Shown here piece by piece: positions 1 through 18,984 of a stretch of DNA of 64,000 nucleotides. A model generated the notes under the pieces. The model was not told where the DNA came from and did not search any database. It saw only the letters and a list, made by a program, of their open reading frames with translations. How positions within the stretch are numbered: position 1 is the first letter of the stretch; each line of letters opens with the position of its first letter. This DNA is from Candidatus Woesebacteria bacterium GW2011_GWB1_33_22 (GTDB lineage Bacteria; Patescibacteriota; Microgenomatia; UBA8517). The position numbers and the translations under genes are program-made. Location: the NCBI GenBank assembly GCA_000989765.1, contig LBOW01000002.1, positions 70,843 to 134,842 of the forward strand, read 5' to 3'.

Positions 1-1398
1 AGAACAATTTTTGAGTTAACTGAAGCCAAAAGAAGAGCCCATATCTTAGAAGGATTAAAAATTGCACTTGACAACTTAGATGCTGTCATAAAAACAATTA
101 GAGAAAGCAAAACCCAAGAGGAAGCAAAAGAGAATTTGATGAAGCGTTTTAAGCTTTCTGAGATCCAGTCTACCGCAATCCTTGATATGCAACTTCGAAG
201 ACTTGCTGCACTGGAGCGAGAAAAAATAGAAAACGAATATGAAGATATTAAAAAGTTAATTGATAGTTTAATTGCAATACTAAAAGATCCACAAAGAATT
301 TTAGAAATTATTAATACTGAACTTTCAGAACTCAAGGCAAAATTTGGAGACTCAAGAAAAACAAAAATTTATAAAAGTAAAATTGGGGAATTTTCTGAAG
401 AAGATTTAGTTGCCAAAGAAGATGTTTTGGTAACTGTAACTCGGACAGGTTACATTAAAAGAGTTTCAAGAAATGCTTACAAGGCTCAAAGACGAGGTGG
501 AAAGGGAGTAATTGGAATGACCACCAAAGAAGAAGATGAAATTGATCACTTAGTTACAGCTAGCACACATGATCAGATATTATTCTTTACTAATAAAGGT
601 CGTGTTTTTGGTGCAAAAGCGTATGAGATTCCAGAAAGCTCACGGCAAGCAAAGGGGCAGGCACTTGTTAATTTTTTAAATCTTGAACAGGGAGAAGATA
701 TTAAATCTATTTTACCAATGGATAAAGAATCAAGTGCCAAGAATTTAATATTGGCAACTGCGTCGGGGATAATTAAAAAGACAGAACTTAAACAGTTTGA
801 AAACTTAAGAACAAATGGGCTTATTGCTATTAAACTACAAGGGACTGATTCTTTAATTTCTGCCCATTTAACTTTTGGGTCAGATAACATTATGCTTCTA
901 ACTCAAAAGGGGATGTCTATTAGATTTCCGGAAGGGAACGTTCGGCCAATGGGTAGGGCTACAACTGGCGTAACAGGTGTTAAGATGACAGCAGGGGATA
1001 GTGTAATTGGCATGGAAGTTTTTCCTGAAAAATTAGGAGTACCTGTTGATAAAAGAAAAAAGGTCTTTAGAGATATTTTAACTCTTTCAATTCATGGGTT
1101 AGGGAAAAGAACAAGATTTGATTTATTTCCAATTCAAAAAAGAGCAGGGAAAGGGGTTAAAGCTTGTATAGTTTCAGCTAAAACTGGAGACTTGGCTTGT
1201 GCATCTTTAGTTACAGAAAACTCTGATCAACTTGTAATTACTTCTAAAAAAGGGCAAGTGATTAAACTTCCAGTTAAAAATATTCCACAATTAGGCAGAG
1301 TAACACAAGGGGTTATTATCATGCGATTTGCAAATAAAGGAGATTCCATCGCCGCCGCCACAGTCCTTGAAAAAACAGGGGATGAGGAAGAAGAATAA
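1..1398 (+). CDS. gyrA: DNA gyrase subunit A, C-terminal part (5' end lies outside the window)
   Basis: The frame is open from nt 1. RAHILEGL and QRRGGKGV motifs and repeated beta-pinwheel blades are typical of the GyrA C-terminal domain. Confidence 0.9.
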   Translation, partial: RTIFELTEAKRRAHILEGLKIALDNLDAVIKTIRESKTQEEAKENLMKRFKLSEIQSTAILDMQLRRLAALEREKIENEYEDIKKLIDSLIAILKDPQRILEIINTELSELKAKFGDSRKTKIYKSKIGEFSEEDLVAKEDVLVTVTRTGYIKRVSRNAYKAQRRGGKGVIGMTTKEEDEIDHLVTASTHDQILFFTNKGRVFGAKAYEIPESSRQAKGQALVNFLNLEQGEDIKSILPMDKESSAKNLILATASGIIKKTELKQFENLRTNGLIAIKLQGTDSLISAHLTFGSDNIMLLTQKGMSIRFPEGNVRPMGRATTGVTGVKMTAGDSVIGMEVFPEKLGVPVDKRKKVFRDILTLSIHGLGKRTRFDLFPIQKRAGKGVKACIVSAKTGDLACASLVTENSDQLVITSKKGQVIKLPVKNIPQLGRVTQGVIIMRFANKGDSIAAATVLEKTGDEEEE

Positions 1399-2412: not shown

Positions 2413-3391
2413 CCTTTTTGATATATTCTTTAATGCTTTGTCCTTCTCTTGTTTGTAATATATAGGCTCCGCCAGAACTTTTAGCTGAAACTAATACATT
2501 TTCTTCACTTAGGTTAATATAGGAAACAGAATATTCAAGTGGATTGCCAATTTCTTGCAAAATATCATTAACCATTTCTACTGTTAGATTAGTATTTACA
2601 AAAGAAAATGCAGAAGCAAAACTTTTGACATTTGCTTTTTGAAGTATTGCTTTTAATATTTCAAACTGCCGTCTGGAACGATCAAAGTCACTACTCCCAT
2701 GCCTACTTCTGGCGTATTTTAAAGCTTCCTCACCATTCATCTGGTGAGGTCCAACTCCATAACTAATTGATTCATATCTACATGTAAATTGTTTTTCAAG
2801 TTCAAAACCTGAATATTTTTGATGAAATTCTTCTACCTTTTCAGGCGAAAAACCACATAGTTCGTTTTCAAGCCCCTTAACAGGATAAAAATTGTCAGTA
2901 TATGCTTTTTTAACATCTACTGTTATCCCACCTATAGAATTAATCATCTTCATAAACGAAATAAAATCAATAGATATAAAGTTAGATATTGAAAGACCAG
3001 TAACATCAACCACTGCATCTTTAAGTGATGGATCAGCGTTTATCTTATGTCCCGAAAACCAAAGATCTCTGGGAATTGAAATTAGATTTACCTTTTTATC
3101 AGTCACATTAACCGACACAATTATAATAGCATCCATTAAACCTCCACCTGAATGTCCTGCACCCCCATGACCAGTCAGTAAAACATTTAAAAATTTAGCA
3201 TTTTTTGTAGTAACCCTATCTTCCACTATTATTTCAGGTAGGGGATAAGAGTTTGTTTGGATGCTGGCAATTGATGATTGATTATTAGTTACAAACTTTG
3301 TATAGCCATAAGTCCCAAGATACATACCAATTAAAAAAACAGGTAAAACTAAAAGAAATACAAAATTAGGACTTTCTAATAATTTTTTCAT
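2405..3391 (-). CDS. LytR-CpsA-Psr (LCP) family cell-envelope phosphotransferase
   Basis: N-terminal TM plus LCP-domain motifs (SIPRDLW, GGxxxxxxTVxxxxGI, ALxYARSRH). Confidence 0.75.
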
Positions 3392-5598
3392 TTACCCCTC
3401 CCGTGGAACTGTTCATGGATTTCATGAAGTTGTTTATTGGTAACATGTGTATAAATCTGAGTAGTTGAAATGTTTTTATGTCCCAACATTTCTTGAACGC
3501 TTCTTATATCGGCTCCTGCATTAAGTAAATCTGTCGCGTATGAGTTATGACTTACAATTCCATCAGTAAATAAATTTTCAGTATCTAAGACAGTAAAATC
3601 AAAAACATTATATCTAAATGAAGGTAGTTTTTTGATTTTTTTAACCTTTAACCATTTATAATTTTTGGATCTATATAATTGCTTTAATAAGTTGAGTTTT
3701 TGATCTTTATAACCAAAATTTTCAATCTGTCTAATAAATTTAATTAGGGTAGATCTTAACGGAACAATCTTATCTAAATATCGATTTGATTTTATATTTT
3801 CATTCTTTTGCATAGCATATCTAAATCCTATTTTTCCATTCTCTTCTAAATCAATAAATATAGACTTCAGGACCGATTGAGCTGGTATTTTTTCTTCTTC
3901 CCAAATTGAATTATCTAATAATGTTTTACCTTTTAAGGTTGGGATTAATTTAATAAACAATTTCTGATCATTTTTACTAATAATTTGGAGGGTGTAAAAC
4001 AAGTGCCTGAATAATTTACCTTGAGGTAATTTGACCGTTCTGTCTCTCTCCATCAAATGAGCATCTATACCAAGCCTCAAAAGTAACATTTGGATATCTT
4101 TCAAAAAATCCTTAGACGAGGAAAAGATTCTTGGCGCTCCATTAGAATTTCCTTCAGCATCGTAAATTCCAGCTATAAATTCTTTTATTTCATCAATAGT
4201 TGAATTCATTATCAAATAGGGCACACGTCTATCTTTTGAATGTTCATGCAAATTTAAATCCTTCTGCAAAAAATTTACAAATTGATCTGAATAAAAATTC
4301 AATCTAAACGAATTTGTTTTTGGATTGGGTTCAATTCTAGCTTCAGCATTTAATAAATCTCTGATAATTTTTTGATATAACTCAAGAATTGTTTTATTCT
4401 TATCGTGGATAATTACCCCTCTTCGAACTTTACTAATTACACCATCTCCTAAAATATATCCGACTAATCTGGATATCTTTGGATCTATGAATTTTAAACC
4501 TTTTATTTTAACTCTCCGAATTCCTAACACATAATCGTTTACTTTTAAATTTTTGACAAATATTTCGTTAATTCCATTACTTCTTAAGGTAAACAGCCTA
4601 TGGTTATTAGAACAAACTAATTCGTATCCATCAGCCCAAACTGAGTAAAGATCCGATAAATGAGATTCCTTACCAGAAATTTTAGTTTTAGTTATCTTAT
4701 CATTCACCAGATTTAATCCCAAAATGTCTGATTGGTTTTGATAATATAAATTTCGAGCTGAAATAATTTGATCTTTTAAAAATATCCTTGTTTCAGGATG
4801 AACACAGTGGCGGATCCCGTGAGGCGTAATTTCAACAGGTAATTTAATTTTGTGTACATATTTTTTAACCAATCGTTCCACTGATCGGGGAGTGAGGCGC
4901 ATTTTTTCGCCTGCCTGCGCAGGCAGGTCAGGAGTATCAATAAACTTTCCTTTATGTCGTATAAACAAAGGTTTAAAATGATCTTTTCTTTCATTTAAAT
5001 ATTTTTTTAAGTAATCAGCAGAACGAGAAGAAAGAAAAACAACTCTTGCTCTTCCTCCCTTACCAGTAATTCCAAATTCACGTCTTTCAAAATCTATTTT
5101 TTCAATATTAAGGTTTGTTAGTTCAGATACACGTAAACCTGTTGAAAATAAAACTTCCAAAATTGCTTTGTCTCTAATCCCTTGAATGTCTGACATTGTT
5201 GGAGCATTAAGAAGTCTATCTACTTGTTCACCATTTAAAAATTTAACTTGTCTGTCTGGAATTTTAGGTAGTTCAATTTTATCAGGTGCCATAACTTGAT
5301 AGTCATTCCTTATTAGCCATTTTAAAAAGGATCGGAGAGCAATAGCGTGATATCCTTGAGTCTTCTTTCCCAAACCAAGTTTAGCGAGGTATGCCCTAAA
5401 GTCATGAATCGCGTCCTGTTTTATGTCTTCTAATTTAGCATTTGCCTTTTTAGCATTTAACCAGATTGATAATCTGGTTAGGTAATGTTTGTAATTTCTA
5501 ATTGTAAGAGGGGAGCAACCTTTTTCGACAGATAAATAATCCAAAAACTCATCTATTTTTTTTGCTATCTCTGTTATTTTTCCTTGGGCATCTAACAT
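3388..5598 (-). CDS. XerC/XerD-like tyrosine recombinase interrupted by a ~421 aa intein
   Basis: N-terminal SAM-like domain; catalytic Arg (LRVSEL), HGIRH, and a C-extein [34 protein letters not shown] carrying the catalytic Tyr. A Cys...HN|S intein with two LAGLIDADG motifs sits between RH and S. Confidence 0.8.
3544..4806 (-). mobile_element. intein with LAGLIDADG homing-endonuclease domain inside the tyrosine recombinase
   Basis: Begins Cys (after HGIRH) and ends His-Asn followed by Ser+1. Motifs [12 protein letters not shown] and [12 protein letters not shown]. Confidence 0.75.
4910..4927. repeat. palindromic mini-element CCTGCCTGCGCAGGCAGG (family B) inside the recombinase gene
   Basis: Perfect 18-nt palindrome; encodes PAQAGE in-frame. 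Confidence 0.8.
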
Positions 5599-16386: not shown

Positions 16387-18984
16387 TTATTTTGTGTGTT
16401 TTGTGTCACGAGGATAAAACTTAATTCTATCTCCCTTGAAGAATAATGGAACTGAAGCAAGGGGTCCGTTTCTGTGTTTAGCTATATCTAAAACTATATT
16501 TTCATTATTGTCTTCATCTTCACGCCACAAAAACATAACCACATCTGAGTCCTGTTCAATGCTGTTATGAACGATAATATCGTTAGCTACAAAATTAGCA
16601 TTTTTAGGTACTGTTGCATCATAAACCTTTTTAATTCCTTGAAATTCAATTGAACGAACTTCATCCCAATAAATATCTGATTGAGCAAATTTTCTTAATT
16701 CTTGATTTTTTAACTCTTTATAAATAGATAAAAGTCTATTTCTACCAATCCCATTTTCATATCTTTGAGTTCCACTATATGCCCAGTTCATTCTTTTGTG
16801 AAATTCTCTTGTGGTAATATTGTTTTGCTTTAGCAAAATTTTAATATAATCCCATATTTCTTTTGGTATTACATCATTATTTGGATTTTCTGTAATATTT
16901 TCCAAAAAGTTTATTGCTTTTTTGACTTGCTCTTTTTTATTACCAACACAACCTATATCATGCAAGAATTTTAATTGTTCGATTTTCCCTTGAACATAAA
17001 CATTCCATATATCTTCATAGCCCACTTTTGATGTTTTCCCTATTTTAGATATTATTCCTAAACGCAATAACAAATGTTGAACTTGTTTTATCAAATCTTT
17101 ATTCCCTGAGGCATAATAAACTGATACTTTTGACTTTTTACCAATTTGCGTGTGGATACAACCATCAGTAGCCCATAAGTGTTTTAAAAATAACTTAATT
17201 TTTTTGCTATTCAGCTCAAAAATTTGATCAGGAATAATCTTTTCTCTTGAATGTTGACCATATACTCCTAATTCCTCATCCAACCATTTTACAAGTGGAT
17301 TTCTTTTTCCTCTAGCCAATCTTTCAGAAGCAGATAAATAAAGATGATACCAATTTTCTTGTTTTACAATTCTTGGAGTGATTGAGAACTCTTTAACAGC
17401 TGCTTTTTTAACAATTGAAATTAGTTTCATATCTGAATTTGTATAATGAATCGGTTGTCTTTTTACATAACAGCCATCGCCAATCATGTGTGCCAAAACA
17501 ATCAATTTATCGTTGGATATGTTTGCTTTGCCAATAACAGATAAAATTCTCGGTATCGCTAATCTATCACCGATTTTTAATTCGTCAAGCCGTATCCAAT
17601 TATTCAATTTTAAAAATTTATGATTAGCAGAAGCTGTTATTTCTCTACCACTCTTAAGAACTAATTTGTAAACCTTCTTTATCCCGCTAAAAAAGACTTT
17701 TGTTATTATTGATTCTTCCAGTTTTAAATTTGAATTCAATGTACTAACTTGAAGGTTATTTTTACCAATTAATGAATCGATTCGTACGCGTTTACCAGAT
17801 GGATATAAAGTTATTAAACTATTTCCTAAAAGGCATCCAGATTCACGAAGGTCCGAAAGTTGGGGCTTTCTGGTTCCTCTCTGTTCCACTCCACGAGATA
17901 ATTGTGATAGAGCAAGAACTGGAACTTTAAGCTCTCTTGCTAAGTTTTTAAGTCCTTGAGAAATTTCACTAACCTCTTGAACTCTGTTTTCTAAATTCCT
18001 GCTTCTAGCAAGTTGCAGATAATCTACAATTATTAAATCAAGTCCATGTTCTACTTGAAGACGTCTTGCTTTTGTTCTCATTTCTAAGATAGAAAGTGCT
18101 GGAGTATCATCAATGTAAAGGGATGCTTCAGCTAAGATCCCCATAGCATTTGAAAGTTTAGTAAAGTCATCCTCTGTTAATTTTCCGGTCTTTAACCTCC
18201 AAGCATCAATATCTGCTTGAGCAACGAGAAGCCTATCTACCAATTCTTCCTTGCTCATTTCCAGAGAGAAAAAGCCTACATTTTTTTTGTCAACTACGGC
18301 AGCGTTTTGTGCAATACCCAAAGCAAAAGATGTTTTACCAATAGAAGGTCTAGCTGCTAAAATAATTAAATTACTTTTTTGTAAACCAGCCAGAGCATTA
18401 TCTAAAGTTTCAAATCCTGTTGAGATACCTCTTAAACCCTCCCCTTGTTTATGAAGCTCGTCAAGCCGATCAAAACTTTCAGCCAAGGTATCACGAACGG
18501 AAGTAAAAGCTTTAGTTAAATGTTTTTGAGTTAATGAGAAAACTTCAGATTCGGCTTTATCTAAAAGTTCTGCTGAAGAAACTCCCTCATCAGTTGAAAA
18601 ATCCAATAAGCGTGAGGCTGCCTTCATTAAAGCTCTTTTAACGGCTAAGTCTTTAACTATTTTTCCATAATGTTCGACGTGAGCTGCAGTTGGAACTTTG
18701 TTAGCAACATCAGTTAAGTATGATGCTCCACCAATTTTTTTTAAATTTTTGTTTTTCTTTAGTTTTTCAGTAACTGTTAAAACGTCAACGGGAGATCTTT
18801 CTTCAAAAAGAGATAACATTGCTTCATATATTTCTTTATGACGTTCATCATAGAAGTCTTCAGAAAGTAAGAAGTCGGCAACAGCAATAACCGCATCTTT
18901 ATCAAGAAGGAGTGCACCAAGGACACTTTGTTCAGCCTCAACACTGTGGGGTGGTACTCTAATTTGATTATTATCTTGAGCCAT
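16387..18984 (-). CDS. dnaB: replicative DNA helicase DnaB interrupted by a ~424 aa intein
   Basis: Walker A ARPSIGKTSF; the RecA-like core is split at RESG|C...HN|SIEQDSDVVMF. Confidence 0.9.
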   Translation of the reverse strand: MAQDNNQIRVPPHSVEAEQSVLGALLLDKDAVIAVADFLLSEDFYDERHKEIYEAMLSLFEERSPVDVLTVTEKLKKNKNLKKIGGASYLTDVANKVPTAAHVEHYGKIVKDLAVKRALMKAASRLLDFSTDEGVSSAELLDKAESEVFSLTQKHLTKAFTSVRDTLAESFDRLDELHKQGEGLRGISTGFETLDNALAGLQKSNLIILAARPSIGKTSFALGIAQNAAVVDKKNVGFFSLEMSKEELVDRLLVAQADIDAWRLKTGKLTEDDFTKLSNAMGILAEASLYIDDTPALSILEMRTKARRLQVEHGLDLIIVDYLQLARSRNLENRVQEVSEISQGLKNLARELKVPVLALSQLSRGVEQRGTRKPQLSDLRESGCLLGNSLITLYPSGKRVRIDSLIGKNNLQVSTLNSNLKLEESIITKVFFSGIKKVYKLVLKSGREITASANHKFLKLNNWIRLDELKIGDRLAIPRILSVIGKANISNDKLIVLAHMIGDGCYVKRQPIHYTNSDMKLISIVKKAAVKEFSITPRIVKQENWYHLYLSASERLARGKRNPLVKWLDEELGVYGQHSREKIIPDQIFELNSKKIKLFLKHLWATDGCIHTQIGKKSKVSVYYASGNKDLIKQVQHLLLRLGIISKIGKTSKVGYEDIWNVYVQGKIEQLKFLHDIGCVGNKKEQVKKAINFLENITENPNNDVIPKEIWDYIKILLKQNNITTREFHKRMNWAYSGTQRYENGIGRNRLLSIYKELKNQELRKFAQSDIYWDEVRSIEFQGIKKVYDATVPKNANFVANDIIVHNSIEQDSDVVMFLWREDEDNNENIVLDIAKHRNGPLASVPLFFKGDRIKFYPRDTKHTK
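16564..17835 (-). mobile_element. DnaB intein with LAGLIDADG homing-endonuclease domain
   Basis: Starts Cys after DLRESG, ends VHN before SIEQD. Motifs LAHMIGDGCY and LKHLWATDGCIH. Confidence 0.8.

Follow-up and report, generated by a model that had tools for sequence, protein, structure and literature searches.

Introduction

The closest structurally solved relatives of the element described here are the inteins of Thermococcus litoralis VMA (7QSS), PI-PfuI (1DQ3), PI-PkoII (2CW7) and PI-SceI (1VDE), in which a Hint splicing domain is interrupted by a LAGLIDADG domain with two motifs, and which are built from Cys1, a TxxH-type block B, a terminal His-Asn and a +1 nucleophile over a length of ~420-450 amino acids. 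Their hosts are a V-ATPase, a ribonucleotide reductase and a DNA polymerase. The inteins of DnaB, RecA/RadA and MCM occupy conserved catalytic motifs of DNA-metabolism proteins, are patchily distributed, and have ATPases as hosts. Here, we describe an element that has all of these structural features, the same kind of insertion site and the same patchy distribution, but that sits in a site-specific tyrosine recombinase: the Xer-type protein encoded at positions 3388 to 5598 of a 64,000-nucleotide stretch (the window) of contig LBOW01000002.1, from Candidatus Woesebacteria bacterium GW2011_GWB1_33_22. The Xer intein is only 10-19% identical in sequence to the solved inteins, and is known here from its sequence and a structural model.

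Members of the Xer family carry the catalytic residues R-K-H-R-[H/W]-Y in their C-terminal domain (PMC5357621). XerD (1A0P), XerA (4A8E, 5HXY) and the single-recombinase proteins XerH and XerS (PMC5357621) combine a SAM-like N-terminal domain with the R-K-H-R-H-Y set, as does the spliced form of the window protein; unlike it, none of the characterised Xer proteins has an intein. A parallel exists among engineered enzymes. In split Cre and split phiC31 integrase (PMC3973285, PMC6868429), splicing joins two inactive halves, thereby making activity splicing-dependent, as we would expect for the Xer intein. Those constructs rely on synthetic trans-splicing with DnaE inteins at chosen sites, whereas the Xer intein is natural, would splice in cis, and brings its own predicted homing endonuclease.

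In our view it is highly probable that the insert is a canonical class-1 intein with a LAGLIDADG endonuclease, lodged in a chromosomal Xer gene, and that it is primarily a selfish mobile element, tolerated by its host because it splices. Splicing would begin with an N-S acyl shift at His264-Cys265, followed by transesterification to Ser686, cyclisation of Asn685 and an O-N shift, and would yield a 315-amino-acid active Xer protein (...HGIRH-SYATDLL...) together with a free endonuclease of 421 amino acids. The free endonuclease would then cut intein-free xer alleles at the conserved site encoding HxxRH/S (here and below, the slash marks a splice junction), and repair from the intein-bearing copy would allow the element to spread.

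The interrupted xer gene

The precursor is divided into two exteins and the intein as follows.

3388..5598, minus strand: xer precursor gene, 736 codons plus stop, a single uninterrupted open reading frame (ORF)
4807..5598, minus strand: N-extein, amino acids 1-264, comprising the SAM-like N-terminal domain and the beginning of the catalytic domain; C-terminal end ...PHGIRH
3544..4806, minus strand: intein, amino acids 265-685 (421 amino acids, 1263 nucleotides), a Hint splicing domain into which a LAGLIDADG homing-endonuclease domain is inserted; ends DGIVSHN
3388..3543, minus strand: C-extein, amino acids 686-736 plus stop (51 amino acids), beginning SYATDLL with the +1 nucleophile Ser686

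The limits of the intein are set exactly by a syntenic ortholog from which just these 421 residues are missing. In the 309-amino-acid ortholog of Woesebacteria GW2011_GWA1_33_30, the motif PHSIRH/SYATDLL runs on continuously, and the genes around it stand in the same order as in the window (Na/H exchanger, two small ORFs, YebC, DUF5656, a 233-amino-acid ORF, xer, LytR, SIMPL and GyrA), the sole difference being an additional Fic gene in GW2011_GWA1_33_30. It follows that these 421 residues form a discrete insertion in an orthologous chromosomal gene, and are neither a domain of a recombinase subfamily nor an artefact of assembly; the interrupted locus is the chromosomal xer. The ortholog thus fixes the limits proposed in a first-pass annotation of this DNA, which had read the ORF as a tyrosine recombinase split between HGIRH and a serine.

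Intein-free orthologs reach 88% identity by BLASTP, or ~90% in the extein alignment, and the 120 best matches to the joined exteins are all 287-335 amino acids long, which is the intein-free length. The precursor itself is 100% identical to protein A2130_00760 of Candidatus Woesebacteria bacterium GWC2_33_12, which belongs to the Candidate Phyla Radiation (CPR)/Patescibacteria; the identical protein is present on 21 contigs, which come from several sources, and more than 100 lineages contain homologs. The intein has a GC content of 27.9%, compared with 35.1% for the exteins.

Domain searches with the whole precursor reflect this layout, with matches well above chance. In Pfam, the recombinase is recovered as Phage_integrase (128 bits, broken into two stretches) and Phage_int_SAM_1 (53.8 bits), and the insert as Intein_splicing (50.4 bits, cut-off 35.8) and LAGLIDADG_3 (56 bits in two stretches, cut-off 22.5). 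XerD and XerC are the best NCBIfam families, each again in two stretches. The NCBIfam model intein_Cterm is passed (19.7 versus a cut-off of 15.6), while intein_Nterm is not reached by the precursor (17.8 versus 24.5).

Splicing and endonuclease signatures

Conservation was assessed over 107 full-length homologs, 42-83% identical overall, and the residues found to be invariant in this alignment were confirmed by a separate tool alignment of 69 of these sequences. Four regions of the intein carry the diagnostic motifs.

4600..4611, minus strand: block B, S-N-N-H (TxxH-type), amino acids 330-333; [ST]xxH kept in 107/107, His invariant
4432..4467, minus strand: first LAGLIDADG motif, amino acids 378-389 (LVGYILGD385G); acidic D385 kept in 106/107
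4141..4176, minus strand: second LAGLIDADG motif, amino acids 475-486 (IAGIYDAE482G); acidic E482 is E or D in 106/107
3544..3606, minus strand: blocks F and G, amino acids 665-685, VFDFTV...TDGIVSHN; D667, H684 and N685 invariant

The N-terminal nucleophile, Cys265 (Cys1 of the intein), lies directly after HGIRH and is a cysteine in all 107 homologs. The block F aspartate and the terminal His-Asn are equally constant (107/107 each), and the +1 residue is serine in 106 homologs and cysteine in one. The first residue of block B varies between serine (83/107, and in the window) and threonine (24/107).

Modelled on its own with AlphaFold, the intein gives a confident structure, with a predicted local distance difference test score (pLDDT) of 89.6 and a predicted template-modelling score (pTM) of 0.90. 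Its top Foldseek matches are TliVMA (7qss; E 3e-24, template-modelling (TM) score 0.69), PI-PfuI (1dq3), PI-PkoII and PI-SceI, and a profile search of Protein Data Bank sequences retrieved the same endonuclease-bearing inteins. The central domain of the model matches I-DmoI (TM 0.70 on the target, 23% identity) as well as the endonuclease domains of PI-PfuI and TliVMA. Judged by sequence and model together, the insert is confirmed as a class-1 intein (Cys1 ... His-Asn/Ser+1) with a two-motif LAGLIDADG endonuclease. The first-pass annotation had described it as a 421-amino-acid intein with two LAGLIDADG motifs; these begin at amino acids 378 and 475, every sequence string cited in that annotation was recovered where expected, and both the Pfam and NCBIfam models and the fold matches agree with that description. 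Splicing, endonuclease activity and the dependence of recombination on splicing are predictions that we consider well founded.

The intein contains only two cysteines, C1 (4804..4806) and C65 (4612..4614, in the minus-strand gene), the latter directly before block B. The C65 position is a cysteine in 90 of the 107 homologs, and the two residues could form a redox-sensitive pair.

The spliced recombinase

The six catalytic residues are divided between the two exteins.

5131..5133, minus strand: catalytic R156, N-extein
5059..5061, minus strand: catalytic K180, N-extein
4819..4821, minus strand: catalytic H260, N-extein
4810..4812, minus strand: catalytic R263, N-extein
3478..3480, minus strand: third histidine, H707 (H286 in spliced numbering), C-extein
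3451..3453, minus strand: tyrosine nucleophile, Y716 (Y295 in spliced numbering; IYTHV at amino acid 715), C-extein

Once joined, the exteins align over their whole length with E. coli XerD 1a0p (E 2e-42) and with Pyrococcus XerA 4a8e. The six catalytic residues align with those of 1a0p and are invariant in 69 homologs, so that the expectation that the exteins alone rebuild a complete catalytic core holds for the full R-K-H-R-H-Y set, with the tyrosine in IYTHV. The insertion point lies one residue after the second catalytic arginine, R263. By our own count of the E. coli sequence, the positions in XerD that correspond to the two sides of the junction are H248 and A249, so that it falls one residue past catalytic R247. 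Because the intein enters one residue past this arginine, R156, K180, H260 and R263 are left on the N-extein, and H707 and Y716 on the C-extein. From these positions it is a sound expectation that recombinase activity would depend on splicing, and the unspliced precursor is likely to be inactive or poorly active. When the whole precursor was modelled, the intein was predicted with confidence, but pLDDT fell below 50 at the junction (254-263) and in the C-extein (687-721), which hints weakly that the active site may be unformed before splicing.

The name of the enzyme needs some care. The spliced extein does not reach the NCBIfam equivalog cut-off for XerD (258.1 bits versus 329.6) or for XerC (256.7 bits versus 335.15), and passes only NF040815 (recomb_XerA_Arch, 'site-specific tyrosine recombinase/integron integrase'), with 227 bits against a cut-off of 220. 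Since both equivalog cut-offs are missed, 'Xer-type' is the accurate name and neither 'XerC' nor 'XerD' is established. Of the earlier designation 'XerC/XerD-type', the Xer-type core therefore stands and the finer assignment does not. No second tyrosine recombinase is encoded within the 64-kb window. A search of the window with the bacterial dif consensus gave nine matches at three mismatches, compared with 4.5 expected by chance, and none of them stands out as a dif-like site.

Distribution of the intein

In a scan that took one genome per species, the intein was found at the identical RH/C...HN/S site in ~70 species-representative genomes, and at least 274 protein clusters carry it. The record titles of the carriers cover many CPR groups, namely Woese-, Gottesman-, Roizman-, Nomura-, Yanofsky-, Peregrini-, Kaiser-, Azam-, Taylor-, Brenner-, Lipton- and Nealsonbacteria, Kazan and Saccharibacteria. 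Several metagenome-assembled genomes (L005, L006, L007, L014, L017, L025, L030 and L067) have a CPR-type Xer with the intein and are assigned in their public records to Gammaproteobacteria, Pseudomonadales or Nevskiaceae; these implausible labels probably stem from mislabelling or mis-binning of CPR contigs.

Five intein-bearing contigs are labelled as DPANN archaea (L016, L020, L021, L026 and L032); a locus on L087 (10001..10828) was considered together with them. The exteins of L016, L021 and L026 are short, at 268-283 amino acids, and score best, above the cut-off, as archaeal XerA. The genes flanking the intein on the DPANN-labelled contigs are themselves uninformative on the domain of origin. 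The named intein-free relatives of the L021 extein are all Pacearchaeota, Nanoarchaeota or 'archaeon', and one intein-free relative lies beside genes for PolD DP1/DP2 and Cdc6/Orc1, so the host clade is archaeal. Between archaeal and bacterial carriers the inteins are 41-50% identical and the exteins 30-34%, whereas among bacterial pairs the inteins are normally less alike than the exteins. In a neighbour-joining tree of the inteins, moreover, the archaeal copies are nested at two places inside the bacterial diversity. This excess of intein similarity, together with the nesting, points to inter-domain transfer of the Xer intein between CPR bacteria and DPANN archaea.

The element is also found in more distant recombinases. 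An exhaustive profile search returned 281 representatives at E <=1e-30, the top-scoring of which have recombinase hosts. Among the hosts are short tyrosine recombinases that are not of the Xer type (P0258, P0260, P0261, P0263, P0266 and P0284), with weak Phage_integrase scores and no detected SAM-like domain, and these carry homologous inteins at the same ...RH/C...HN/S position. The HxxRH motif would therefore be a homing site common to several recombinase families. The nearest hosts of related inteins outside the recombinases are archaeal MCM and RadA.

Only three related loci were found on 'viral' contigs in IMG/VR. On L084, a Xer-like gene with the intein (39% identity) at 3266..5425 adjoins replication-type genes, for a KaiC-like ATPase and a DnaD/HTH_36 protein. 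On L085, 3188..5407 encodes an ATPase with a related intein (35%), in which RecA-like motifs were recognised by eye from the sequence. As to viral contigs acting as vectors for the spread of the intein, these loci are suggestive and no more.

Selection, mobility and competing explanations

The pairwise proportion of synonymous differences (pS) is saturated in every pair, at 0.66-0.85, while the nonsynonymous proportion (pN) is low, at 0.12-0.27 for the inteins and 0.05-0.21 for the exteins. As synonymous sites are saturated, we did not use ratios of nonsynonymous to synonymous substitution rates (dN/dS), and give instead this contrast between low pN and saturated pS. It follows from the contrast that the intein and the exteins have both been kept as working proteins. 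That exteins interrupted by the intein should be under purifying selection would make sense only if splicing restores function. Across ~170 alleles, the intein is 405-430 amino acids long, and no endonuclease-free mini-intein is found among them.

Several patterns clearly indicate that the intein has moved. Within 75% extein identity of the window protein there are 61 intein-free clusters and two that bear the intein. A tree of 165 exteins requires at least 19 changes between presence and absence, and the clade of the window protein consists of four tips, two with the intein and two without. In some pairs the exteins are very similar and the inteins divergent (dN 0.053 versus 0.27 in one, 0.085 versus 0.33 in another), and in other pairs the two are equally divergent. 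From these patterns we consider the intein to be probably still mobile.

Several points weigh against the selfish-element interpretation. The identities of intein and extein are correlated (r 0.72-0.82), and much of the history is therefore vertical, with present-day homing not proven; the endonuclease could also have been retained for some other reason. The trees were built by neighbour joining and have no support values. Splicing and DNA cleavage are themselves matters of inference and not of direct evidence, and the window covers 64 kb only, so a further xer gene may lie elsewhere in the genome.

An alternative that is compatible with a selfish origin is that the intein has been domesticated, and that conditional splicing, in response to redox state or metal ions for example, gates Xer and hence chromosome-dimer resolution or division in these small symbiotic cells. 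The age and wide distribution of the intein and the purifying selection on it would suit such a role, as would its place beside a catalytic arginine, where splicing must control activity. The same can be said of the restriction of its cysteines to C1 and the largely conserved C65, of the uniformly full-length alleles, and of the low confidence of the junction and C-extein in the precursor model. A host function of this kind is nonetheless disfavoured by the patchy distribution, with so many close relatives lacking the intein and gains or losses so frequent on the extein tree. Moreover, the acidic residues kept in the endonuclease answer the needs of a mobile selfish element, and the element is shared with unrelated recombinases and with a second domain of life. 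Overall, we regard a regulatory intein as quite improbable. A broader proposal would make the intein, with its endonuclease retained in all alleles seen, a conditional-splicing switch (acting, for example, through C1/C65) that times dimer resolution in ultra-small CPR and DPANN cells; the nesting of the archaeal copies would then reflect repeated direct DNA exchange between these episymbionts. This we consider unlikely.

Two of the reservations listed above, the indirect case for splicing and the chance of a second xer beyond the window, could also be read as signs of a dead element, in which splicing has been lost and this copy of xer is disrupted and non-functional. Such an element is hard to reconcile with a frame that is open across 736 codons, with splicing residues that are intact here and in 107/107 homologs, and with the strong purifying selection on the exteins of intein-bearing alleles (dN 0.05-0.25, dS saturated). 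Nor has any of the six catalytic residues been lost, and the gene occupies the syntenic chromosomal xer position, which leaves this explanation very improbable. Finally, the idea that the insert is not an intein at all, but a normal accessory domain (for instance one that binds DNA) found in a recombinase subfamily, or a chimera produced in assembly, draws on nothing more than the large size of the insert and is refuted by the detection of Hint blocks A, B, F and G, by the Pfam and NCBIfam intein models, by the PI-PfuI/TliVMA fold, by orthologs of ~90% extein identity without exactly these 421 residues, and by the occurrence of the identical protein on 21 contigs.

Significance of a recombinase intein

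The novelty of the canonical, endonuclease-bearing Xer intein is in the class of its host protein; its mechanism and anatomy are those of an ordinary class-1 intein. Full-text literature searches brought up no naturally occurring intein in tyrosine recombinases or any other site-specific recombinase, and returned only engineered split-intein Cre and phiC31 and unrelated co-mentions. The main text of a 2015-16 intein survey mentions neither integrase nor Xer hosts, and the tyrosine-recombinase and Xer reviews that we retrieved do not mention inteins. Some copies have nevertheless been labelled 'site-specific recombinase XerD/intein/homing endonuclease' in Joint Genome Institute (JGI) annotation. 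The host had been called unusual in the first-pass annotation, a description that is apt for the literature searched but not for the sequence databases, given the at least 274 clusters and ~70 species-representative genomes described above.

Site-specific tyrosine recombinases, comprising Xer/XerA and some integrase-like enzymes, can now be added to the host proteins of inteins, and insertion beside a catalytic arginine agrees with the rule that inteins settle in the best-conserved regions of enzymes of DNA metabolism. This intein family is large, always full length, intact in its endonuclease residues, and common to CPR bacteria and DPANN archaea, which makes it a useful marker of gene flow between these uncultured groups, and a good natural system in which to study the homing cycle. 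As a natural protein, it parallels the split-intein recombinases of synthetic biology, and could supply both a new splicing-dependent recombinase and a new rare-cutting endonuclease. For annotation, the consequence is that these genes fall short of the family cut-offs and, if the intein goes unnoticed, frequently receive names such as 'hypothetical protein' or 'LAGLIDADG family homing endonuclease'.

Neighbouring genes and a second intein

A scan for promoters and terminators around xer gave counts at chance level only. In the window, xer and lytR overlap by four nucleotides (3388..3391) with no Fic gene between them, whereas in the intein-free sister a Fic-domain gene lies between the two (L001, 6933..7946). 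The GyrA gene at 1..1398 on the plus strand is cut by the edge of the window, its frame being open from base 1. The GyrA protein of the sister genome has 873 amino acids, and its recorded domains are topoisomerase and gyrase only; NCBIfam holds a 'GyrA_w_intein' model.

A second LAGLIDADG intein is present in the window, in the 865-amino-acid DnaB helicase encoded at 16387..18984 on the minus strand. It spans amino acids 384-807 (424 amino acids, 16564..17835) and occupies the classic RESG/C...VHN/SIEQD site. We considered whether the Xer intein might be a copy of this neighbour, and ruled it out: the two are only 23% identical, so neither was recently copied from the other. Within 15 kb, this small genome thus carries at least two unrelated inteins.

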